Virus record (IMG/VR): IMGVR_UViG_3300028025_006190
Location: 12,978-76,977 of that record
From: a virus
Length of the DNA: 64,000 nt
Reading direction: 5' to 3' (one strand)
In this document: positions 44,585 to 64,000 of the stretch, piece by piece
How the letters are laid out: each line of letters starts with the position of its first letter
Position numbering within the stretch: the stretch's first letter is position 1
The notes under the pieces: model-generated
What the model was told of the DNA's origin: nothing
Seen by the model: only the letters and a program-made list of their open reading frames with translations
Database searches by the model: none
Program-made: the position numbers and the translations under genes

Positions 44585-45742
44585 ATGAGCTACATTAATA
44601 CCCTTTCCGGGTATCGCATGAGCGATGACTGGGCCGACCATATTGCCCGTGGATCGCGGGGCGGTATTGACTATGCCACTGGAATGAATACCCCAATTCC
44701 TGCCCCGATTGCTGGTCGCCTGGAGAACCGCCCCGATAACGGTAATGGGTTTGGAAACTACATTCGCTTCCACCACGGCAACGGGTTCATTGACGAGTAT
44801 TTGCACCTCAACAGTTTTGTTGCCGAAGGAAACTACGCTCAGGGGCAGGTTATTGGGTACACGGGAAATACCGGAAATAGCACCGGACCCCACGTACACT
44901 GGCACCTTATTGATCCAAGTGGTCGTCGGGTAAACCCTCTTGACTATGTTCAGGGTGGTTCAGGTGGAAGCACGACTTCCTCTGGAATCGGTGCGAGTAT
45001 GGCAGCTGCTCAGCAGATACTTGCAAATGTTGGACTCTATAGCGGTGTTGTTGATGGTATTTTTGGTCCTAAGTCTTGGAGAGCCACTCAGACGTGGTTG
45101 GCCAAGTATGGACTATATGACGGAGCAATTGATGGAATTCCTGGACCGAAGACCTACCGAGGGGTGCAGCTATACGGTCAAAAGAATGGTAACTACGGCC
45201 CTCCCGGGGTAGTTGATGGAGTTCTTGGTCCCCTGTCGTGGGCTGGATTTGTTCAGTCTTTGAAAGAAGATACGGCGGCACCTGCCCCAACCCCACCACC
45301 AGCGCCAGTAAAGCCAGAGCCTGTAAAGCCTGAGCCTGTTGTGCCTCCTGTAGTGCCAACTCCACCAGTCCCGGAAAAACCAGAGGTTGTTGTCCCAGAA
45401 AAACCTGAAAAGCCCGCAAAACCCACTCGCCCTACACGACCATCTAAGCCCACTAAACCTGTAAAGGATCCAGTAATGCCAGAAGTAAAGCCACTCCCTG
45501 ATGCCGCAAATACTGCCGCTCACGACGCTCTTGGGATCTTGATCCCGAAGGCAAAAAACCGCAAGATTGCATATGCCGTCTACGGTCTGATCTCTCTAGT
45601 TGTAAGCAACGCTGCAGTTGGTGTTGTTGCTTCTGGAACGGAAGCTCCCCTGTGGCTTATCATAGGTCTTGCCGTTGTCGGTAACCTGGGTGCCCCGTTC
45701 GCAACACTCGCTATCGCGAATGCCGGCAACAGCCAGAAGTAA
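44585..45742 (+). CDS. Endolysin (M23 peptidase + PG-binding repeats + Pro-rich linker) fused to a holin-like two-TM domain
   Basis: GIDY, YLHL and GNSTGPHVH motifs; three DG(I/V)xGPxS/T repeats; C-terminal RKIAYAVYGL...WLIIGLAVV. Confidence 0.85.
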   Translation: MSYINTLSGYRMSDDWADHIARGSRGGIDYATGMNTPIPAPIAGRLENRPDNGNGFGNYIRFHHGNGFIDEYLHLNSFVAEGNYAQGQVIGYTGNTGNSTGPHVHWHLIDPSGRRVNPLDYVQGGSGGSTTSSGIGASMAAAQQILANVGLYSGVVDGIFGPKSWRATQTWLAKYGLYDGAIDGIPGPKTYRGVQLYGQKNGNYGPPGVVDGVLGPLSWAGFVQSLKEDTAAPAPTPPPAPVKPEPVKPEPVVPPVVPTPPVPEKPEVVVPEKPEKPAKPTRPTRPSKPTKPVKDPVMPEVKPLPDAANTAAHDALGILIPKAKNRKIAYAVYGLISLVVSNAAVGVVASGTEAPLWLIIGLAVVGNLGAPFATLAIANAGNSQK

Positions 45743-45750
45743 GCTAAAAT

Positions 45751-45799
45751 AAAAAAGCAGACCCGACCACATTCGTGACCATCGGGTCTGCTTCTTTTT
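45751..45799. terminator. Intrinsic terminator, possibly bidirectional
   Basis: AAGCAGACCCGA/TCGGGTCTGCTT stem flanked by A- and T-runs. Confidence 0.75.
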
Positions 45800-45870
45800 G
45801 TCGCTCAAGTGTTACGGTAGCACGACGGTCTCCAAAACCGTGAGACTAGGTTCAATTCCTAGGAGCGGCG
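45800..45870 (+). tRNA. tRNA-Trp(CCA)
   Basis: Acceptor GTCGCTC/GAGCGGC; anticodon arm ACGGT-CTCCAAA-ACCGT; T-arm CTAGG-TTCAATT-CCTAG. Confidence 0.88.
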
Positions 45871-45915
45871 CAATTTGACTACATTGTTTCTAAATTTGTG
45901 CTAAAGTATTTATAA

Positions 45916-46085
45916 CGCAAGATCGACGGATCAAGCGGAGTGATGGCTGAATGTGTCTTTCCAGTAAGGACCTAAAGCACACCTCGGGTTAGCGCCCTGC
46001 CTTAGCGGGTAAAAGAGGTGGTCGGGTGCGGTACATACTGTATTGCTGGGACCCCGTGGTGGTAAAACGCAATCCACCCACTCAA
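45916..46085 (+). ncRNA. Candidate structured ncRNA of about 170 nt
   Basis: Extended -10 upstream, terminator downstream, multiple nested helices and no credible ORF. Confidence 0.55.
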
Positions 46086-46087
46086 CT

Positions 46088-46123
46088 AAAAACCCCCGGG
46101 ATCTTTTCCTCCGGGGGTTTTTT
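46088..46123 (+). terminator. Intrinsic terminator
   Basis: AAAAACCCCCGG/CCGGGGGTTTTTT. Confidence 0.8.
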
Positions 46124-46145
46124 ATGTGTGTTACTGTTTACAGAA

Positions 46146-46219
46146 CGGGATGTAGCTCAGCTTGGTAGAGCGCTGCGTTTGGGACGCAGAAGTCGCAGGT
46201 TCAAATCCTGTCGTCCCGA
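46146..46219 (+). tRNA. tRNA-Pro(TGG)
   Basis: Canonical cloverleaf; anticodon arm CTGCG-TTTGGGA-CGCAG. Confidence 0.95.
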
Positions 46220-46220
46220 C

Positions 46221-46296
46221 GGCGGTGTAGCCCAATGGCAGAGGCACACGGTTTAGGTCCGTGCCAGTGTGAGTTCGAATCTCATCACCGCTACCA
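46221..46296 (+). tRNA. tRNA-Leu(TAG) with short variable loop and encoded CCA
   Basis: CACGG-TTTAGGT-CCGTG anticodon arm; GTTCGAATC T-loop; ends ACCA. Confidence 0.9.
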
Positions 46297-46320
46297 AAAG
46301 TCTTATGTTAGACTTCTGCC

Positions 46321-46485
46321 ATGCAGGAGAACGCTATTAAGATCCTTATTCGAGATGAGATGGTTGAGGCCGGGATTGTCGTTGCAGAGGGGACAATGCT
46401 CACCTATCTATATGAGGGTCGAGAATATCTAGTCATGATGAGCGTCGTAGACATTACGGATTGGGACAATCAAGATGACGAATGA
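46321..46485 (+). CDS. 54-aa hypothetical protein (leaderless, not in ORF track)
   Basis: TGT-TAGACT-N6-ATG. MQENAIKILIRDEMVEAGIV...DNQDDE; overlaps the next gene. Confidence 0.55.
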   Translation: MQENAIKILIRDEMVEAGIVVAEGTMLTYLYEGREYLVMMSVVDITDWDNQDDE

Positions 46486-46693
46486 TCCGGTACGCCAACC
46501 ATCTCATTACTTTCACCCAAGTGGTATTGAAGTTATTGAGATCACAAAACACGAGTCTTTCCTCCGGGGGAACATCATCAAATACATTCTCCGTGCCCCA
46601 TTTAAGGGCAGAGAGTTAGAAGATTTACGTAAAGCTCAGATGTATCTTGAGTGGGAAATTGCCAGAGTTGAAAAGGAAATAGAAGACAAGTGA
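46475..46693 (+). CDS. DUF3310-like protein (T7 gp1.7-type putative nucleotide kinase)
   Basis: DPV..PSHY...IEVI...GNIIKYILRA..KG..EDLRKA..YL motif. Confidence 0.8.
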   Translation: MTNDPVRQPSHYFHPSGIEVIEITKHESFLRGNIIKYILRAPFKGRELEDLRKAQMYLEWEIARVEKEIEDK

Positions 46694-47388
46694 TTTTTAC
46701 CAGTGAACTAGAAGTAGAGCTTGTTCAATACTCCGGAAGCGATAAAATAATTGCAGATGCTGCTCGAGTATCTACTGGCGCTGTGGCCGATGCATACACT
46801 GAAGAAGAGAATGCCAAACTACTTGGGTATCTTGTAAAGAATCGCCACGGCTCACCCTTTGAGCACAACTCGATGACCTTCAAGATCTCTGCTCCTATAT
46901 TTGTATTCCGTGAGTTCCAACGTCACCGTATTGGCTGGTCCTATAACGAGGTCTCTGCGCGATACAAAGAGATGGATCCGGTTTTCTATGCGTACCCACC
47001 AACGAGGCCTCTAGTCCAGGAAGGATCCTCTGCCCATCCGAAGCTTGTTGACGGGCACCCGTCTATGACTACGATGGTAAATCACGAAATGATGACTGCA
47101 TACTCTCACTCCTGGGGGATCTACAAAGCTCTTCTGCGTGAGGGTGCTGCTAACGAAGTTGCTCGATCTGTGCTCCCTGTTGGTCTCTACAGTCAGATGT
47201 ATGCGACATGCAATGCTCGAAGCTTGATGGCATTCCTGTCATTACGAGTTGATGCTGAGAACGCCCAGTTTGAGACCAAGCCCCAGTGGGAGATCGAACA
47301 GGTCGCTCGCAAGATGGAAGAGTACTTTTCTCTAATGTTCCCGGACACACACTACTTTTTTAACAAGAATGGTAGAATTGCTCCATAG
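46690..47388 (+). CDS. thyX: Flavin-dependent thymidylate synthase
   Basis: HGSPFEH, RHRIGWSYNEVSARY, EVARSVLP and QWEI motifs. Confidence 0.95.
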   Translation: MIFTSELEVELVQYSGSDKIIADAARVSTGAVADAYTEEENAKLLGYLVKNRHGSPFEHNSMTFKISAPIFVFREFQRHRIGWSYNEVSARYKEMDPVFYAYPPTRPLVQEGSSAHPKLVDGHPSMTTMVNHEMMTAYSHSWGIYKALLREGAANEVARSVLPVGLYSQMYATCNARSLMAFLSLRVDAENAQFETKPQWEIEQVARKMEEYFSLMFPDTHYFFNKNGRIAP

Positions 47389-47453
47389 GTAAAATTAGCT
47401 AAGTTACCTGCCGACAGTCGGCCGCCCCCAGGGTAAGCGATATCCCTGGTCCA

Positions 47454-47526
47454 GCCTCCTTAGCTCAGTTGGTAGAGCGCGATACTTGTAATATCGATGT
47501 CATCGGTTCGATTCCGGTAGGGGGCC
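47454..47526 (+). tRNA. tRNA-Thr(TGT)
   Basis: CGATA-CTTGTAA-TATCG anticodon arm; GGTTCGATTCC T-arm. Confidence 0.92.
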
Positions 47527-47530
47527 CAGA

Positions 47531-47602
47531 CCCCTCGTAGCTCAGCGGAAGAGCGTATGGTTTCTACCCATCCGGCCGGGAGTTCGAATCTCTCCGAGGG
47601 GA
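47531..47602 (+). tRNA. tRNA-Arg(TCT)
   Basis: CCCCTCG/CGAGGGG acceptor; ATGG-TTTCTAC-CCAT anticodon arm. Confidence 0.88.
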
Positions 47603-47605
47603 CAC

Positions 47606-47679
47606 CGGGAGTTAGCTCAGCCGGTTAGAGCAGCGGACTCATAATCCGTCGGTCGCGGGTTCAAGTCCCGCACTCCTGA
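47606..47679 (+). tRNA. tRNA-Met(CAT), probably elongator (Ile2 not excluded)
   Basis: GCGGA-CTCATAA-TCCGT anticodon arm; GGTTCAAGTCC T-arm. Confidence 0.9.
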
Positions 47680-47681
47680 CA

Positions 47682-47723
47682 ACACAAAACCCCCTGGCCG
47701 ATATATGCCGGGGGGTTTGGTGT
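47682..47723. terminator. Hairpin closing the tRNA cluster
   Basis: ACACAAAACCCCCTGGC/GCCGGGGGGTTTGGTGT. Confidence 0.55.
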
Positions 47724-47726
47724 CAG

Positions 47727-48008
47727 ATTCTGGATCACCGCCTATGTAGTTGCCAGTTAACCTTTCGTTGGGTGAGTTTGAACATTGGAATCATTCAGCT
47801 CCTAACTGGCCTCGCGGCCATCTCATACAAGATACTTCTATTTTAGAAGCTATTAAACTGTTCTAGATCTTCTACTGTGACGATGAGATCCCGGTGATTT
47901 AGAATAGAAGTAGCCAAGGCGCAGCTCCCCTGCTGCCCGGCATTGTGAATTTCGCTACCTCACAAAAGCTAAGCCCCCTCTTGAAAATATATTGGAGGGG
48001 GTTTAGTG
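47727..48008. ncRNA. Candidate multibranch structured RNA of about 280 nt
   Basis: 14-bp closing stem, internal nested stems, further hairpins and no ORF. Confidence 0.45.
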
Positions 48009-48029
48009 TTACTAAATCTATATGAGAAG

Positions 48030-48059
48030 TTGGCAGTATATAATAACAATTTTTATAAT
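48030..48059 (+). promoter_or_regulatory. Sigma70/SigA-like promoter upstream of the RNR-tail peptide
   Basis: TTGGCA-N18-TATAAT. Confidence 0.6.
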
Positions 48060-48163
48060 AGCTCGCAAGATTTTACGAGGTGCTACACTAGATAAAACCC
48101 AATAAATATCAGCAAAATGGCCAAGTTTCCTTGGTCAATTTTCATCTCACCTGGAGGTCATAT

Positions 48164-48247
48164 ATGAACGAAAAAATAACAACCCTTGGCGAATACCAGG
48201 TCCCAATCGACCCGATGGATGAGTTCCAGTGCGAGGGGTGCCAATAG
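48164..48247 (+). CDS. 27-aa peptide resembling the RNR-alpha C-terminal redox tail (CxxCQ-stop); not in ORF track
   Basis: GGAGG RBS 6 nt before ATG. MNEKITTLGEYQVPIDPMDEFQCEGCQ. Confidence 0.75.
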   Translation: MNEKITTLGEYQVPIDPMDEFQCEGCQ

Positions 48248-48334
48248 GCACGACCCCGAAACGGGTCCGGCCCGGTGCTCCTCGATCGTTGCTAGAGTCG
48301 AGCGCCGGGCCAACTAATCTTATAAAATGACTAT

Positions 48335-49285
48335 ATGACAGGCGTAACTCCGGAGACCTTAGTTCTTACTTCTGAAGGTTATCGGGAGATTTTATCACTA
48401 ACTGGTTCTCCATTTTTAGTGTGGAATGGCGGGGAATACACTCCAGCAGTTGCGCAAAAACTAGCTGAACAACAAAAAGTTATTCGGATAGAGCTTGTTT
48501 CTGGTACTGAAATTGAGTGTGCAGCAGACTTTGAATTTCGGATCCAACGTGACTACTACGTCACTGCAGTGCATAACCAGGAAGCGAGATACCTGGCTCC
48601 CGGTGATCGACTCATCAAGGGTTGGTATCCAGTAGTTCCGGGTGGGGCTGAAGAGTTTCCCTACTCATATACACACGGCTACTACTCCGGAGCTGAGAAG
48701 TTTCGACTGGGAGACAAAGTTCTTGCAAGATCTGCAGTCTACGGAGTTAGGCGGCAGTCTCTACAACTTCTACAACTAAATACAGAACTAGATCAAAAAA
48801 GAAGTCTTAAGTTTTTAGACAGTATGCCTGAAGACTATGAAATCCCCCTCGATTTTAGATACTCACTCGAGACAAAGCTGGAGTGGCTAGCTGGACTTTT
48901 TGATTCTGGTCTTATCAAAAGAAAAGTGGGAATCAGGCCGATCTGGGATATTTACTCAGAAAATTATGACTTCCTAAAAAGACTGAAACTATTCAGTCAT
49001 ACGCTTGGCGGAGACGCTCGAGTAATAAAAAATAGTGATCTTGGAAGAGCTCACTACACTTTTCGTTTGGCCAATACGTGGGTGCAGAACCTAAGAAAAA
49101 TGAATATCCCCGTAGTTAACCACTCGTTCCCCGAGATCAACTACACCAGAAGAAGCATTGATTATCCGAAGATAGCTCAAGTAATTGATGACTACAGATA
49201 CTCAGACATATACAACATCACACAAGAAAACAAAGACACGGTTGTCCTCAACGGCATCCTTGTTCCAAACAACTCAGAAAGGTAA
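48335..49285 (+). CDS. Free-standing degenerate intein (HINT + LAGLIDADG-like), leaderless
   Basis: GVTPETLVLTSEG (block A lacking Cys), LAPGDRL, WLAGLFDS and IYNI...VLNGILVPN (blocks F/G). TAAAAT-N6-ATG. Confidence 0.75.
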   Translation: MTGVTPETLVLTSEGYREILSLTGSPFLVWNGGEYTPAVAQKLAEQQKVIRIELVSGTEIECAADFEFRIQRDYYVTAVHNQEARYLAPGDRLIKGWYPVVPGGAEEFPYSYTHGYYSGAEKFRLGDKVLARSAVYGVRRQSLQLLQLNTELDQKRSLKFLDSMPEDYEIPLDFRYSLETKLEWLAGLFDSGLIKRKVGIRPIWDIYSENYDFLKRLKLFSHTLGGDARVIKNSDLGRAHYTFRLANTWVQNLRKMNIPVVNHSFPEINYTRRSIDYPKIAQVIDDYRYSDIYNITQENKDTVVLNGILVPNNSER

Positions 49286-49289
49286 CACC

Positions 49290-50279
49290 ATGGGAATCCT
49301 CGGAAAAGGAATCCAGGAGGGCCTCCTCCTCAAGCCAGTCAAATACCAGTGGGCAATGGATCTGTACGACCAGGCCGTAGCGAACACGTGGTTCCCTAAC
49401 GAAATTCAGCTCGGAGAAGATATTGCCGACTTCAAGAAGATGTCTGAGGAAGAGCAGCACGCCATCACATTCTTGATGTCGTTCTTTAACCCCTCGGAGC
49501 TGATTGTAAACAAGGCTCTTGCCTTTGGCGTGTACCCATATCTGAACGCACCCGAGTGCCACCTGTACCTCGCGAAGCAGATGTGGGAAGAAGCAAACCA
49601 CTGCATGTCGTTCGAGTACGTTCTCGAAACCTTCCCCGTTGATCGCGCAGAAATCTACAACCAACACGTCTCGGTTCCCAGCATCAAAGCCAAGGAAGAC
49701 TTTGAGGTCAAGTTCATCACGCGCATGACCGAAGAGACTCTTGACATTGAGACCGTAGAAGGCAAGCAGGACTTCGTCCGTAACCTTGTCGCTTACTCGG
49801 TCATCATGGAGGGCATCTGGTTCTACTCGGGCTTCATGGTGGCGCTCAGCTTCCGCCAGCGCAACCTGCTGCGTAACTTTGGTTCGCTCGTTGACTGGAT
49901 TGTTCGTGACGAGAGTCTGCACCTCAAGTTTGGTGTCAACCTTGTTGTGACCATCCTGGACGAGAACCCCGACATCGTGACTGAAGAATTTGCTGCTGAG
50001 ATCAAGCAAATGATTTTGGACGCTGTCGACATGGAGACGGCGTACAACAAGGATCAGTTCCCCAATGGAATCCTCGGTCTAAATGCTGACTACGCTACGC
50101 AGTACACCAAGTACCTTGCAGACCGTCGTCTTGAGGAGCTCGGCTTTGGCCCGCACTACAACGTGACAAACCCCGCAAAGTGGATGGCAGCAGCCAACGA
50201 TACTTTGCAGTTGGTCAACTTCTTTGAATCAACAAACACTTCTTACGAAGTTAACGCTACATCATCTAGCAAGCACTAG
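49290..50279 (+). CDS. nrdB: Ribonucleotide reductase beta subunit, class Ic-like
   Basis: WFPNEI, SELIV, EEANHCMSF, EGIWFYSGF, RDESLH and NFFE motifs. Confidence 0.92.
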   Translation: MGILGKGIQEGLLLKPVKYQWAMDLYDQAVANTWFPNEIQLGEDIADFKKMSEEEQHAITFLMSFFNPSELIVNKALAFGVYPYLNAPECHLYLAKQMWEEANHCMSFEYVLETFPVDRAEIYNQHVSVPSIKAKEDFEVKFITRMTEETLDIETVEGKQDFVRNLVAYSVIMEGIWFYSGFMVALSFRQRNLLRNFGSLVDWIVRDESLHLKFGVNLVVTILDENPDIVTEEFAAEIKQMILDAVDMETAYNKDQFPNGILGLNADYATQYTKYLADRRLEELGFGPHYNVTNPAKWMAAANDTLQLVNFFESTNTSYEVNATSSSKH

Positions 50280-50287
50280 GAGCAGTT

Positions 50288-50329
50288 ATGTGTTGCTGCA
50301 CAGAATGCAAGTGCGGTCTTAAAGACTAG
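50288..50329 (+). CDS. Putative 13-aa Cys-rich peptide MCCCTECKCGLKD
   Basis: AGGAG RBS overlapping the nrdB stop; lies before the terminator. Confidence 0.4.
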   Translation: MCCCTECKCGLKD

Positions 50330-50334
50330 TCCGC

Positions 50335-50374
50335 AAAAAGAAAACCCCCTCTTAGGAGGGGGCTCTCTTTTTTT
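50335..50374. terminator. Bidirectional terminator
   Basis: CCCCCTC-TTAG-GAGGGGG with flanking A- and T-tracts, between convergent genes. Confidence 0.75.
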
Positions 50375-50385
50375 ACAAAGCTCTG

Positions 50386-50973
50386 TTAGCGAGTTTCGTA
50401 TCTACAAAGAATTCTGTGGAGCTCTTCTTTAACTTCTACTGGTCGATAGGGGAATCCAATAATTTCCCAAATCATGTCACCTTTGTGAAAAGAGATGTCC
50501 ATGACATAAATTTCCCAGCCGTGCTCAGAATAGATGGGGATGGAGATGTGATCCCCCCGATGCGAATTATCAGTAATTCCGGGGTTTCCATTGTCGTAGG
50601 ACCTATAGTGTTGGATTAGCGGGAAGACGGGATGCCATCCATAAATTTCTGTCTGCCCGATAATAGTGTCTTCATAGTACTCGTCTGTAATTTCAGACTC
50701 TGACACATTCCATTTTTTGCTCCAAGGCTCCCTCACGTTTGGGTTTTCTTTTTCGTAGGTAAGAGTATCTACCTTGTGTCTAATGCTGCTGGACATTAAA
50801 AAGAAAAGCCAGGAAATATCTTTGTCATCGAAACTAGACGAGTCTTTACCTATGGCATTTACTTTTTCTGGCTTGCCCATCATCTTGAAAAGTTCTGTCA
50901 TTCTCTCAAGATCTGACTCAACTTCTTCTTTGATAATGTTTTTCATCATTACTGATGTTTCTAAAATAGACAT
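50386..50973 (-). CDS. Hypothetical protein
   Basis: ORF with AGGA before the ATG at 50973. Confidence 0.55.
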   Translation of the reverse strand: MSILETSVMMKNIIKEEVESDLERMTELFKMMGKPEKVNAIGKDSSSFDDKDISWLFFLMSSSIRHKVDTLTYEKENPNVREPWSKKWNVSESEITDEYYEDTIIGQTEIYGWHPVFPLIQHYRSYDNGNPGITDNSHRGDHISIPIYSEHGWEIYVMDISFHKGDMIWEIIGFPYRPVEVKEELHRILCRYETR

Positions 50974-51061: not shown

Positions 51062-52126
51062 CTACTCGATTGGTCCGCCGACAGCCCAGGCGTTGCAGGT
51101 GCGAGATGCTGCGCACTTAAAGTCCAGAGCTTCGCAGTATCCGAGCTCAGCTTGATCGATTGCGGAGTCGGCATCTCCGCCGGAAGATCCGCCCTGCTCG
51201 ATTCCTGTAGCGATGCAATCTAACATCTCGGGGGTGCGGACAAAGAATACGCAAGTAGCGCAGGTCGTAGTTCTAGCCTCTTCTACAGTGGTCTTCCACT
51301 TATCTGCCTTGTCCTGCCAGAACTCATCGTTGGGTTCTTTGGGATTTAGCGGGCCGTAACCTACGTTGTCGATGGCGTTCTGACGGTTTTTGAGGTTTAG
51401 TTGGATGTCCTGTGTGGCGGGTGGGCACTCTTCCTCGTTGAGGGTGGCAAACATAGAAGCCAGCAACGGGGAGATGTTGGCTGCCTCTGAACTACGAGGG
51501 TGGGCTTTGGGGAGTAGATCGTTGTCTGATACGTACTTTGCGTTGGTGGGCTTACCAGACTTTACAAGCTTGAGGAACGCATTTACTCGAGCCATGGCCC
51601 ACGAGTTACGGTTTTGGTCTGGGCGGTGGGAGGTGGAGAATGCACCAGCACCACGACGGTAGACAGCCTTGAGCATCCGAAGGTTGACCTTACGACCATT
51701 TTTAGCTTTGGCGTTGTGGTCTTCTACCTTCTTCTCTAGAGCCGAGATAATTGATTCTGTGAACCTAACGCTGGCACCTGTGTCGGCTGATCCAGCCTTG
51801 TTCTTGTCAGATCCTTTTATTTGATCTTTCTTTGGGGCCGGCTTAGATCCAGCGGTGGCAGTTACCGCACCATCTGGTAGGACGGCAAAGCGACACAGGC
51901 CGCCATCTTCTACTTCAGAATCAATAATTGAGCAACCATTAGGTGAGTTGAAGAAGACGCAGTTGCCACACTTGACACCAATCTTGGCGTTCTCTACGTT
52001 CTCGGCGGCAGGTGTGTAGCCCGCCCAGACGCCTGTGTTGTCGTCGTTAAACTTCCCATATTTTTGGGTAATCTCAATAAGTGCTTGAGCGAGGTCATTT
52101 TCCTCGGGAACTAAAAAACCAGTCAT
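51062..52126 (-). CDS. Three-domain Cys-rich protein (leaderless), possibly head-associated
   Basis: CGNCVFF..C...LC; KAVYRRGAGAF..SHRP...WAMARVNAF; CPPATQD...YGPLNP...CATC...YC...FKC...TC. Confidence 0.7.
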   Translation of the reverse strand: MTGFLVPEENDLAQALIEITQKYGKFNDDNTGVWAGYTPAAENVENAKIGVKCGNCVFFNSPNGCSIIDSEVEDGGLCRFAVLPDGAVTATAGSKPAPKKDQIKGSDKNKAGSADTGASVRFTESIISALEKKVEDHNAKAKNGRKVNLRMLKAVYRRGAGAFSTSHRPDQNRNSWAMARVNAFLKLVKSGKPTNAKYVSDNDLLPKAHPRSSEAANISPLLASMFATLNEEECPPATQDIQLNLKNRQNAIDNVGYGPLNPKEPNDEFWQDKADKWKTTVEEARTTTCATCVFFVRTPEMLDCIATGIEQGGSSGGDADSAIDQAELGYCEALDFKCAASRTCNAWAVGGPIE

Positions 52127-52206: not shown

Positions 52207-52527
52207 ATGAGTAAAGTTCAAGATCTAACTGAGGAAACATTTAAATCAGATGTCCTAGAAGGCTCTGGGCCGGCTCTCGTGGAGTTTTGGGGGTCCTGGT
52301 GCAGTTCATGTAAGGCTATGTTTCCAGTCCTAGACGAACTCTCGGAGGCGCAGGATAAGCTGAAAATCACCAAACTAAGTGTGGAAGATGCGCCAGAAGT
52401 GGCTAGGAGCTATGGGGTTACAAGCATCCCCGCGATGTTGGTTTTCGAAAATGGAGTAGTAGTTCAGACAATTGTTGGTGCAAAAACATATGAGAAGTTG
52501 TCTGAAGAACTAAAAGATTTTATTTAA
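52207..52527 (+). CDS. trxA: Thioredoxin with WCSSC active site
   Basis: LVEFWGSWCSSCK and SIPAM motifs; 106 aa. Confidence 0.88.
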   Translation: MSKVQDLTEETFKSDVLEGSGPALVEFWGSWCSSCKAMFPVLDELSEAQDKLKITKLSVEDAPEVARSYGVTSIPAMLVFENGVVVQTIVGAKTYEKLSEELKDFI

Positions 52528-61157: not shown

Positions 61158-61823
61158 ATGCCTAACGGACAAACCGTCTCTGGTCTACACGAATTCATGA
61201 GAAGTCCTCTCTATGCGACCGTGGAACTAAAAAATACTGGAGATGGGTTCGTCTCTGAGTGGTGGATTTCCCGTAACGAACCTGGAAGTTACGAACTACA
61301 AGTCCTCGGCTATCTTCGGCTCCCTGTTTTTGGGGAGACCGAAGAGGCCGCGACTCGTAGGATCGGGTTTATTTACGGAAACATCTTTGAACTACTCGAG
61401 GCGGTAATCGGAGGGGTGGCCGACACCGGGGCGGGTGGAGACGTTGTTAGTGCGAGAAGGCACTGTAAAGCGCATTTGCAGTGGTGGTCGGACGTAATTA
61501 CGCCAGGAAGTCGTACCGAACATACTGCTTCGCTGTATTCTCTGGCTGTGGAGTTCGGCGTAAACAACCCTGCTGCCCTAATTGCGGAGGTCCAGGTGCT
61601 ACCTTCTGTGAGAACGGTGCACGATCGAATCGCGTATGCGCGACGGATCGGAATTTTAGACTCGCATGGAAAGGGCCGAATCAAGGTTTCTGTGGAATCG
61701 GAATCGGAATCGGAATCGGAGTCGGAAGAAGTGGGACTCTTCCACTATCCCGCCGAGCTAAGCTCTCCGGAGAGAAGTAAAGAGATTATGGATCGTATCC
61801 TGAGGCACTCTGGAGGTATGTGA
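61158..61823 (+). CDS. Hypothetical protein with C-terminal HTH-like region
   Basis: PAALIAE....SVRTVHDRIAYARRIGIL. GGAATC x4 repeat at 61694-61717. Confidence 0.55.
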   Translation: MPNGQTVSGLHEFMRSPLYATVELKNTGDGFVSEWWISRNEPGSYELQVLGYLRLPVFGETEEAATRRIGFIYGNIFELLEAVIGGVADTGAGGDVVSARRHCKAHLQWWSDVITPGSRTEHTASLYSLAVEFGVNNPAALIAEVQVLPSVRTVHDRIAYARRIGILDSHGKGRIKVSVESESESESESEEVGLFHYPAELSSPERSKEIMDRILRHSGGM

Positions 61824-61936
61824 TGTCAAGAAGTTGGGGATGTCTTTTTGTTGGACACCAATGGATTGATGACAAGGACATCGGTGGATATCGGTGCAAT
61901 GTGTGTGGGGCGCACACAGAAAAGCGTGTGTATTAG
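61823..61936 (+). CDS. 37-aa zinc micro-protein (DUF1660-like pattern; not in ORF track)
   Basis: CLFVGHQW...CNVCG. GGAGG RBS and TGATG overlap. Confidence 0.55.
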   Translation: MSRSWGCLFVGHQWIDDKDIGGYRCNVCGAHTEKRVY

Positions 61937-62146
61937 GTGAGCGAAGATCTTTACTGGGTGCGAAACTACGTATCGAGAAACCCGTATACCGGCGCTCCGG
62001 CAGTAGATTTGGCTGCTTTGGCGGGAAGTAGGGAGCTTCGGGGGCTGCTTGCGGGGATCTGGGAGGCTGGATATAACAGCGGATTTACGGACGGTGTAGA
62101 CGATTCTTCGGTCGATTCGCAGTCAATTAACCCTTACAGAGATTGA
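61937..62146 (+). CDS. Hypothetical protein
   Basis: WEAGY..G...NPY motif common in small actinophage proteins. Confidence 0.5.
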   Translation: MSEDLYWVRNYVSRNPYTGAPAVDLAALAGSRELRGLLAGIWEAGYNSGFTDGVDDSSVDSQSINPYRD

Positions 62147-62194
62147 TCTGGGGTAAAATAGTAAGACTTGTTTATTTTTACTTGACGGGATAGC

Positions 62195-62383
62195 ATGAGC
62201 TCTTATGACCTTGTGGTCCTTGCAATAGAAAAGATAGACTGGGTAAGAGAGGTCTCCGGATCTCTTCCAGACGCGCTTGATGACGTGTACGACCTCCTAC
62301 AGGAGTCACTTCATGAGGATGCGTGTGATAGCTGGCCCGCATATGAATTCGCCGAACGGATTCTGAATGCGAGTTGGCCGTAA
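62195..62383 (+). CDS. Hypothetical protein
   Basis: ORF only. Confidence 0.4.
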   Translation: MSSYDLVVLAIEKIDWVREVSGSLPDALDDVYDLLQESLHEDACDSWPAYEFAERILNASWP

Positions 62384-62455
62384 TAATTCGCTATAGTGGC
62401 GAACTGTGTAGCTATGACAAGCGGAGGAAATTCCACCGCAGAAAGGAATGACACA

Positions 62456-63733
62456 GTGAAAAACAAAAAGAAAACCAACAAGGAGCAGTTAGACCAACTT
62501 CGTAAGAAGTGGAACATGAACTGCCAAACCGCGATCAGAGACAAGGTCGCATATGTCCTCCGTAGAAGCCGTACAGACTACCTGAAGGTGTTTGGGTCAG
62601 AGCGAGGACTGAATCGCTATCAAGCCGAAGTCCTTGAGGATGTCTCCGGAGTCGGAACGCACCGAGAGGTGGCCATCTACGAGCGTAATCGCGTTGCAAA
62701 CATTGTGCGTGGTGCGTTTGTCAACGTAGAGCCAGACACCATTACCGGGCTTATTGGCGCTGACATCGTTGCAGAGCTGCTTGGTGAGTTCCAAGCGAGC
62801 ATCATCTCTGTGTCTCCGGACATGATTGTGACGCGCAGCGATGAGAAGATCGAGAACATGAACTTCACGAATGGGGCTGTTCCGGCTCCCGTGTCGGCAA
62901 TGTCTCACGTGTCGGCTGGTGCAAGCATGGGGGCTGCTATTACCTATGGCTATGACCCCACCTCCCCGACTAACATCTATACGCGAGACATGCTGAAGGC
63001 TGCCGGCCATATTGCTAACGATCGGCCTCTTACATTGGATGCGTTCAATGAGAAGTTTCGGGCCGGACTAAAAAAAGTACAGAGCCTCGACTTTAAAAAA
63101 GTTGGGGCAACCTTAGGAGCACTTTCGGCAGTAACTTTGATCTCGTTGGGTACGTCAGTTTCGGCGTATGCAGCGGTGGGCAGTTATGAGATGTACTACA
63201 TCAATCACCTGTCTGACACCACCTGGGAAGACAAAAAGAATGGTTCGCAGTCTCTAAAGGTATCTGCGGATGCACCAGCTCCTTCGGCTGGTCGCTCGCG
63301 GGGCATCTATCAGCCGGACATGATCTGGCCGACAGTTGGCGGATCTAGTGTGATCATCTCCTCTGGATTTGGATACCGTCCTGCACCATGTGCGATTTGC
63401 TCCACGGATCACCGTGGATTGGATATGAACCCCGGGTACGGAACCGAGATCTACTCTGCAACTTCCGGCACTGTTGTGTCCGTTGGTTGGAACGGGTCTC
63501 TTGGTTGGGAAGTCTCGGTTGCGGACGAAGGTAACCGTGTCTATGTCTACGGACATATGATCGCCAACTCTTCTCCTGCGGATATCGTCGTTGGTGCAAA
63601 GGTGAAGCAGGGTCAAGTCATTGGATTCGTTGGTAGCACCGGAACGTCAACCGGAGCGCACCTTCACTTCGAAATCATCGAAGACGGCGTGCAGATCGAT
63701 CCTTACCCGGAGTTACAGCGTTGGGCGCACTAG
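62456..63733 (+). CDS. Membrane-anchored M23 metallopeptidase with large N-terminal domain
   Basis: AAAGGA RBS. Central TM segment. ISSGFGYR...HRGLD...YGHM...GTSTGAHLHFE motifs. Confidence 0.85.
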   Translation: MKNKKKTNKEQLDQLRKKWNMNCQTAIRDKVAYVLRRSRTDYLKVFGSERGLNRYQAEVLEDVSGVGTHREVAIYERNRVANIVRGAFVNVEPDTITGLIGADIVAELLGEFQASIISVSPDMIVTRSDEKIENMNFTNGAVPAPVSAMSHVSAGASMGAAITYGYDPTSPTNIYTRDMLKAAGHIANDRPLTLDAFNEKFRAGLKKVQSLDFKKVGATLGALSAVTLISLGTSVSAYAAVGSYEMYYINHLSDTTWEDKKNGSQSLKVSADAPAPSAGRSRGIYQPDMIWPTVGGSSVIISSGFGYRPAPCAICSTDHRGLDMNPGYGTEIYSATSGTVVSVGWNGSLGWEVSVADEGNRVYVYGHMIANSSPADIVVGAKVKQGQVIGFVGSTGTSTGAHLHFEIIEDGVQIDPYPELQRWAH

Positions 63734-63764
63734 ATTGTTAGTTGGTGTGCTGTAGACTTTTCGC

Positions 63765-64000
63765 ATGAATTTATTTGCGAAGTGGAGACAGCGCCGACTG
63801 CAGAAGAGGTCAGCAGATCTCGTCATTGAAATGCTTATTCAGTATTTGGAAAGTGGCGGAGATCTGGATGACCTCTTCGTGCTTTCTGTGGTGGAACCTG
63901 TGGAGTGGGACATGAAGGGGCAGTTCTGGTTTGTGGGTCTAAAAGATGAGCTGGACCGGGAAATAATAAAGGTAGACAAGAAGGTGTCGCTGTCTTCGGG
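63765..64000 (+). CDS. Hypothetical protein (leaderless, 3' truncated)
   Basis: TAGACT-N6-ATG; frame open to the window end. Confidence 0.5.
   Translation, partial: MNLFAKWRQRRLQKRSADLVIEMLIQYLESGGDLDDLFVLSVVEPVEWDMKGQFWFVGLKDELDREIIKVDKKVSLSS

Follow-up and report, generated by a model that had tools for sequence, protein, structure and literature searches.

Split, partial and invaded ribonucleotide reductases

Ribonucleotide reductase (RNR) is among the best-studied of enzymes, and the C-terminal tail of its catalytic subunit, alpha, has been taken to be a tethered arm; whether re-reduction by this arm limits turnover is a long-standing kinetic question. Pseudomonas aeruginosa reportedly has a split RNR, NrdJa/NrdJb, and in Aeromonas phage Aeh1 the nrdA gene is said to be split by the endonuclease gene mobE. 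Yeast HO is a free-standing derivative of the VMA1 intein PI-SceI. Most chordopoxviruses encode R2 only, and experiments have shown that this R2 forms functional complexes with host R1 (PMC2900304), whilst in phage T4 mobE is a free-standing endonuclease gene between nrdA and nrdB (PMC2790892). The locus considered here lies at positions 48030-50374 of a 64,000-nucleotide stretch of viral DNA (hereafter the window), which is bases 12978-76977 of the 76,977-bp linear IMG/VR record IMGVR_UViG_3300028025_006190, rated 45% complete by CheckV. It consists of a gene for a short tail-like peptide, an intein-like open reading frame (ORF) with no exteins, nrdB for the radical-generating subunit (beta) and a Cys-rich micro-ORF, all four of them where an earlier note, made from the sequence alone, had placed them.

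Each of the known systems has something in common with this locus. The class Ic RNR of Chlamydia trachomatis (1SYY) is like the phage NrdB along its whole length, with Phe at the radical site and Glu as first metal ligand, but in the clade studied here the C-terminal Cys pair is gone from alpha and found on a separate micropeptide, and the phage has no alpha. As in the poxvirus R2-only strategy, there is a viral beta close to that of the host, a host-compatible alpha-binding C-terminus and no large subunit; the differences are that the virus is a bacteriophage, that the enzyme is of class Ic, that a redox tail and a thioredoxin are also brought, and that a complex with host alpha is in this case suggested by sequence. 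Like NrdJa/NrdJb and the Aeh1 enzyme, the catalytic subunit is made as separate polypeptides, one of which can be the C-terminal part with its Cys residues. In contrast to those split enzymes the detached part is only some 25 residues long, has no folded domain, overlaps the nrdA stop codon in the host, has been kept throughout a bacterial family and is carried by phages without the body of alpha. The intein-like gene resembles HO in that its product has an intein fold built around a LAGLIDADG core, that the reading frame has a start and a stop codon of its own and that the splicing residues are gone, and resembles T4 mobE as a putative free-standing endonuclease gene lodged in a phage nrd cluster. 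It differs from HO in coming from the family of inteins found at RNR catalytic sites (SNLC|TEI and NPC|GE) and in having no HO-type zinc-finger extension. No account of such an arrangement turned up in the literature, which was searched for alpha tails encoded on their own, for phages carrying nrdB alone and for inteins that stand free in phages.

The locus is probably best understood as a phage booster kit for the class Ic RNR of the host, in which beta, a trans-acting tail and thioredoxin would serve the host alpha core. In the likely hosts the enzyme is encoded in three pieces, namely an alpha core without C-terminal Cys, a micropeptide tail with a CxxC motif, and beta. After infection the phage beta would pair with the host alpha core, and the phage tail peptide, kept reduced by thioredoxin as its likely electron donor, would re-reduce the active-site disulfide of alpha in trans. 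The output of deoxynucleoside triphosphates would thus be raised without the cost of an alpha gene of 800 amino acids (aa), and the 316-aa intein-derived homing endonuclease would mobilise the cassette between co-infecting phages.

Absence of a gene for the catalytic subunit

The earlier note had claimed that no nrdA occurs in the 64 kb, and this is borne out over the full 76,977-bp record, in which there was no match to the class I alpha family (PF02867), to a class II-like reductase query taken from a relative, or to class III (PF13597). The same is true of related phages whose genomes have direct terminal repeats, as neither class I, II nor III alpha was found in G001 (116.7 kb), G002 (120.5 kb) or G004 (94.5 kb, CheckV 100%), each of which has nrdB and one tail gene. 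For the most part G000, the record to which the window belongs, is collinear with G002; tblastx matches cover 62% of G000 and cross the arbitrary ends of G002, and the gene order in G002 is that of the window: tail, intein-like ORF, nrdB, no alpha. Complete genomes of this phage group thus do occur without alpha, and by comparison with these relatives alpha is presumably absent from the whole genome of the window's phage. One further relative, G003, has, 5 kb from a tail-nrdB pair, a 687-aa class II-like reductase (L036:490-2553) whose active-site motif is NPCAEQ and whose C-terminus bears a Cys pair; this one phage thus has two RNR systems, of which the class Ic pair is incomplete for want of alpha.

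The radical-generating subunit and the likely hosts

The nrdB gene (49290-50279, + strand) is identified by matches of its product to PF00268 at 255.7 bits and NF007186 at 382.9 bits, and the best solved relative of the protein is the Chlamydia trachomatis R2c 1SYY at 261.8 bits. When the two are aligned, a Phe of the phage protein falls on the Phe that 1SYY has at the radical-Tyr site, after the ExxH motif, and the first metal ligand motif has Glu in place of Asp. By sequence the product is thus a class Ic beta (R2c), with a cofactor of the Mn/Fe type by family. The metal ligands, the C-terminal Tyr and the short alpha-binding end have all been retained.

When prokaryotes were scanned, one genome for each species, 80 loci were found whose NrdB is 80-85% identical to that of the phage. 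Nearly all belong to the Microbacteriaceae (Rhodoluna-like MWH-Ta3, Aurantimicrobium, Pontimonas, Microcella, Clavibacter, Leifsonia and others), and the last residues of phage and host NrdB, which form the alpha-binding C-terminus, closely match. Identity at this level together with the matching C-terminus points to the Microbacteriaceae as the host group, likely freshwater members such as Rhodoluna or Aurantimicrobium, and makes pairing of phage beta with host alpha plausible. The proposal in the earlier note that the phage supplies the radical-generating and re-reducing parts for a host alpha is in this way supported by comparative data, both from the alpha-less G001, G002 and G004 and from the NrdB similarity, with pairing itself suggested rather than observed. 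Among viral relatives there are 33 loci that encode NrdB at 66-98% identity. Four contigs from metagenome-assembled genomes (MAGs) that are labelled as bacterial and have the order nrdA-tail-nrdB (L039, L043, L064 and L086) nest among the phage sequences on the NrdB tree; they may represent a donor lineage, or phage DNA that was binned into MAGs.

A redox tail encoded apart from alpha

The first gene of the locus (48164-48247, + strand) encodes a peptide of 27 aa that ends in C-x-x-C-Q, and has a GGAGG sequence 6 nt 5' of its start. The peptide was found as a separate ORF in 16 phage loci, in which D, P, C, C and Q are invariant. These invariant residues are written in varying codons, for example all four Pro codons and Ser from both codon families, and selection therefore acts on the peptide as a protein. 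Searches of Pfam and NCBIfam with the peptide found no family. Its origin becomes apparent from alpha proteins. When the inteinless phage alpha of L022 was used in a HMMER search and the 150 best NrdA representatives were taken, 128 of them ended in a Cys pair, and the closest full-length NrdA proteins (P0030 at 58% identity, P0031 and P0149) end in the motif of the peptide, C-P-x-D-P...C-[DE]-S-C-Q. The terminal C-x-x-C-Q and the acidic D-P-M segment are common to the peptide, to these three proteins and to the fused tails of L056, L074 and L115. By homology, then, the peptide is the redox tail from the NrdA C-terminus in detached form. That it is not covalently part of alpha is evident from its own ORF and ribosome-binding site (RBS) in the window, and from its separate state in the 16 phage loci and in most host loci (see below); the alphas of the phage loci L022, L031 and L029 end with a linker of the K-K-G-F-G-F type and without any Cys. 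Exactly one tail gene is present in each of G000, G001, G002, G003 and G004. Six full-length NrdA proteins from unrelated clusters (P0063, P0076, P0099, P0101, P0116 and P0159) also have no terminal Cys pair, and detached tails may exist outside the Microbacteriaceae.

The same detachment is found in the host operons, where the gene order is nrdA, tail, nrdB and where nrdA ends without cysteines. In 72 of the 78 host-type loci, mostly from Microbacteriaceae, the tail is out of frame with nrdA or behind its stop and starts at a separate ATG, typically one that overlaps the nrdA stop (as TGATG or TAATG) or lies 8-43 nt downstream, with a GGAGG-like Shine-Dalgarno sequence in the last codons of alpha. 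The resulting micropeptides are usually 21-37 aa long. A programmed frameshift that would join nrdA to the tail can be ruled out, both in the many hosts in which the tail frame is open for just 0-4 nt before the nrdA stop and in others in which the tail ATG lies 8-43 nt downstream with its own Shine-Dalgarno sequence. Fusion in frame was seen in five loci, four of them from Propionibacteriales (Aeromicrobium, Nocardioides and a Propionibacteriales MAG) and one from an uncultured bacterium. The alphas that go with this beta in relatives and hosts belong to the ordinary class I type (NF005101, 1471 bits). In five host genomes the tail-less alpha is the sole PF02867 gene and NrdD is absent; therefore the only, and hence essential, RNR of these five hosts has an alpha without a tail. 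A few of the host tail micro-ORFs are held in databases, amongst them one from Clavibacter, which UniRef calls "Ribonucleotide reductase, alpha 2 subunit" and NCBI "subunit beta". The detached tail is by these comparisons a trait of the host clade and no invention of the phage, which corrects an earlier reading, and the class Ic RNR of this group appears to consist of three polypeptides, two of which are carried by the phage.

Structure prediction gives weak support to the idea that alpha binds the free tail. The complex of the L022 alpha with its own tail peptide scored 0.54, as against 0.00 for the best control, the runs agreed in at least 63% of contacts and the pLDDT (the model's own confidence measure) of the partner was at least 62. 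Of 80 solved complexes 58 attain the mark applied, as do 2 of 110 mismatched pairs; passes at or below 0.60 comprise only 7 of the 80 solved complexes and both of the passing mismatches, so that a pass this low is wrong more often than not if the pairing was not probable beforehand.

A wider proposition, that throughout the Microbacteriaceae and their phages the tail has been freed as a diffusible mini-redoxin of some 25 residues running from thioredoxin to the active site, that the phages exploit this by bringing only tail, beta and thioredoxin, with a Cys micropeptide, so as to drive the alpha core of the host, and that an escaped intein, now a free-standing endonuclease, moves the cassette from phage to phage, has in our estimation about an even chance of being correct.

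The intein-like gene and the series of gene orders

Between the tail gene and nrdB lies an ORF of 316 aa (48335-49285, + strand) which starts at its own ATG, with an in-frame stop four codons 5' of it, and ends 4 nt before the ATG of nrdB, with no extein sequence on either side. An AlphaFold2 model of the protein (pLDDT 88) finds its best Foldseek matches amongst endonuclease-bearing inteins, first TliVMA (7qsu, E 1.4e-12) and then PI-SceI and PI-PfuI (the matched entries include 1ef0, 1vde and 1dq3), and as modelled the protein has a Hint splicing fold with an inserted LAGLIDADG domain. On its own the window protein had no match in Pfam, and in NCBIfam its only match was intein_Nterm at 16.6 bits, below the cut-off; in the family as a whole PF14528 matches 18 of 32 members and PF14890 matches 9. 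There are 29 stand-alone homologues at 38-91% identity, all but two of them 310-333 aa long and the two shorter ones probably partial. The more distant relatives (22-29% identity) are true inteins, which in other viruses occupy the SNLC|TEI and NPC|GE sites of RNR genes.

The free forms begin a few residues before intein block A, and many end exactly at the last Asn or Gln of the intein. Cys1 is missing in all of them (the window protein has Gly in this column) and the block B His (TxxH) has been lost in many, the window protein included, whilst the true intein of L029 retains Cys1, TxxH and the +1 Cys. Judged by these residues, the window protein cannot splice. The endonuclease core is the most conserved part, and E121 and D190 are invariant in 32 sequences that include the L029 intein. 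In the model these residues lie at the ends of the two central helices, 111-119 and 178-192, the place of the catalytic acids in the LAGLIDADG family, and the motif spacing is off the LAGLIDADG consensus. The best reading of the gene is a free-standing homing endonuclease of the HO kind, with putative activity, which probably moves the cassette between co-infecting phages.

Between them the phage relatives exhibit each intermediate state between an intein-bearing nrdA operon and a simple tail-nrdB pair. The order peptide-nrdA(+intein)-nrdB, which the earlier note had predicted to be ancestral, is present in L029, where the tail is followed by an nrdA whose catalytic Cys is the site of a true intein (SNL|C...Q|CTEI) and then by nrdB. 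In L022 and L031 the tail is followed by a free intein-like ORF, an inteinless nrdA and nrdB. The window, L030/L032 and L008 (which is G002) have tail, intein-like ORF and nrdB, and in L007, L012-L016, L018 and L021 the tail directly precedes nrdB, often with a TAATG overlap. In L019 the order is nrdB, Cys-rich ORF, tail, and in L005, L006, L010 and G004 the tail is 5-7 kb away from nrdB. The suggestion that nrdA was lost and its intein left behind is supported in its first part by the orders in L029, L022 and L031, but the intein-like ORF is not simply a leftover, being a member of a conserved free-standing family that also sits beside intact inteinless nrdA genes. On the NrdB tree the architectures are interspersed, and therefore alpha and the endonuclease gene have come or gone repeatedly; the tree does not distinguish loss of alpha from its gain. 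The orientation of the nrd cassette relative to its neighbours is opposite in G000 (61327-63247) and G002 (61866-63789), in genomes that are otherwise collinear, which fits a mobile cassette.

Alternative explanations

A number of points weigh against the locus being a booster of host RNR. The host already makes a tail and a beta of its own and the gain from extra copies is assumed; action of the tail as a free peptide leans on the complex prediction described above, with its weak support; the window's intein-like protein by itself has no Pfam match and departs from consensus in its LAGLIDADG motifs; and phages that have alpha carry the tail upstream of nrdA, unlike the host order, so that the cassette is not a simple copy of a host operon. 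Furthermore, the window record is a fragment and alpha could sit in the part that is unseen. It might then be supposed that the phage has an alpha of its own in the missing part of a genome whose linear record is 45% complete, and that the locus is a rearranged but complete phage RNR, as L029, L022 and L031 do carry nrdA and G003 has its class II-like reductase 5 kb from nrdB. This is improbable, given that the nrdA of relatives always lies between the tail or endonuclease gene and nrdB, where the corresponding gap in the window is 4 nt, and that the collinear, terminally redundant G002 has the order tail, endonuclease, nrdB and no alpha anywhere. To see in the missing alpha, and in the selfish element inside the operon, the decaying and non-functional remnant of a once complete phage RNR operon is to take a view that the condition of the genes renders very improbable indeed: all the ORFs are intact and provided with promoter, RBSs and terminator, nrdB retains its metal ligands and C-terminal Tyr, the tail peptide varies synonymously with constant amino acids, and the same alpha-less module has been kept across phages in which NrdB has diverged to 77-97% identity.

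The tail peptide might instead act on beta, for example in assembly or maintenance of the cofactor, or as a regulatory leader, with its likeness to the alpha tail a matter of ancestry only. The phage peptide is translationally coupled to nrdB by a TAATG overlap in L012, L013, L016, L018 and L021, and it remains with nrdB where alpha has been lost. We regard such a role as decidedly improbable, however, because what has been conserved, namely the terminal C-x-x-C-Q and the acidic D-P-M segment, belongs to the alpha tail, the tail ORF of the hosts is coupled to the stop of nrdA and not to nrdB, and the only alpha of those hosts has no other C-terminal Cys pair; the tail genes some 5-7 kb from nrdB in L005, L006, L010 and G004 speak against a leader in particular. 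More room must be left for the view, itself on balance unlikely, that the intein-like gene encodes a nuclease-dead relic or a domesticated DNA-binding protein, which would account for motifs that depart from the LAGLIDADG consensus, for the want of a Pfam match to the window protein itself and for an ORF with no obvious RBS. Against it, 27 of the 29 stand-alone homologues hold to a length of 310-333 aa down to 38% identity, the endonuclease core with its invariant E121 and D190 has been conserved most while the splicing residues decayed, and the patchy presence of the gene on the NrdB tree fits a mobile element.

Were a phage-borne booster of a three-piece host RNR to be confirmed, a third polypeptide would be added to class I RNR in a large actinobacterial family, and in hosts for which it is the only RNR the system would for that reason be essential. 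A natural, separate arm of 25 residues would make the re-reduction step directly titratable in vitro. The phage would provide a bacteriophage counterpart to the R2-only strategy of the poxviruses, and the intein-like gene an equivalent of yeast HO in a virus of bacteria, in this case with closely related loci that lead by degrees from a true intein to a free gene. Micro-ORFs of 25 and 13 aa are usually missed or misnamed by gene callers, and the locus draws attention to them.

Other features of the locus and its surroundings

The tail gene, the intein-like ORF, nrdB and the Cys-rich micro-ORF form one transcription unit on the + strand, from promoter to terminator. The unit is headed by a sigma-70-like promoter candidate (48030-48059, + strand; TTGGCA-18 nt-TATAAT, 11 of 12 consensus matches), which is a consensus match only, in a region with three such sites where 2.9 are expected. 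Between the tail gene and the intein-like gene are two GC-rich hairpins without a T-run (48252-48311, + strand; -37.7 kcal/mol, z = -4.2), and a comparable stem is found 3' of the tail gene in L030, L008, L029, L007 and L015. The RBS of nrdB sits within the final codons of the intein-like ORF. Closing the unit is an intrinsic terminator (50345-50375, + strand) with a 7-bp stem, six of whose pairs are GC, followed by a T-run. A search of the window for NrdR boxes gave a single match with three mismatches, far from the nrd locus and at chance level, and an Rfam scan of 45700-50500 gave no match inside the nrd unit.

The Cys-rich micro-ORF behind nrdB (50288-50329, + strand) encodes 13 aa, five of them Cys, and has an AGGAG sequence 6 nt 5' of its start. 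Similar micro-ORFs lie directly 3' of nrdB in L014 (19 aa, six Cys, AGGAG RBS) and L019 (15 aa, four Cys, TAATG overlap with the nrdB stop), and none was found behind nrdB in the 80 host loci. In the phage loci ORFs of this kind occur at a background rate of 0.0104 per kb per strand, so that about 0.01 would be expected in the short stretches behind nrdB, compared with the three seen. On these counts the micro-ORF is real and specific to phages; it is possibly a recurrent accessory in metal or thiol handling.

The nrd unit is placed between three tRNA genes (47454-47680) and a convergent gene. As the earlier note had it, thyX, a DUF3310 gene and trxA are all nearby, the first two upstream and the thioredoxin gene (52207-52527, + strand; PF00085 at 85 bits) 1.9 kb downstream as a separate transcription unit. 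A trx gene also lies within a few kb of nrdB in L002, L007, L015, L020, L027 and L034. The active-site motif of the window's thioredoxin is W-C-S-S-C, compared with the usual W-C-G-P-C. Six tRNA genes in all (Trp, Pro, Leu, Thr, Arg and Met), in two clusters at 45800-46296 and 47454-47680, flank DUF3310 and thyX, and between tRNA-Trp and tRNA-Pro there is a match to the manA RNA motif (RF01745; 45920-46088, + strand) at 48.6 bits and E 1.6e-10, just below the gathering score of 55.2. On the opposite strand a 354-aa protein (51062-52126, - strand) matches DUF5824 at 34 bits and has two Cys-rich C-x-x-C-V-F-F segments; a protein of this type is kept beside nrdB and trx in L002, L019 and L034.

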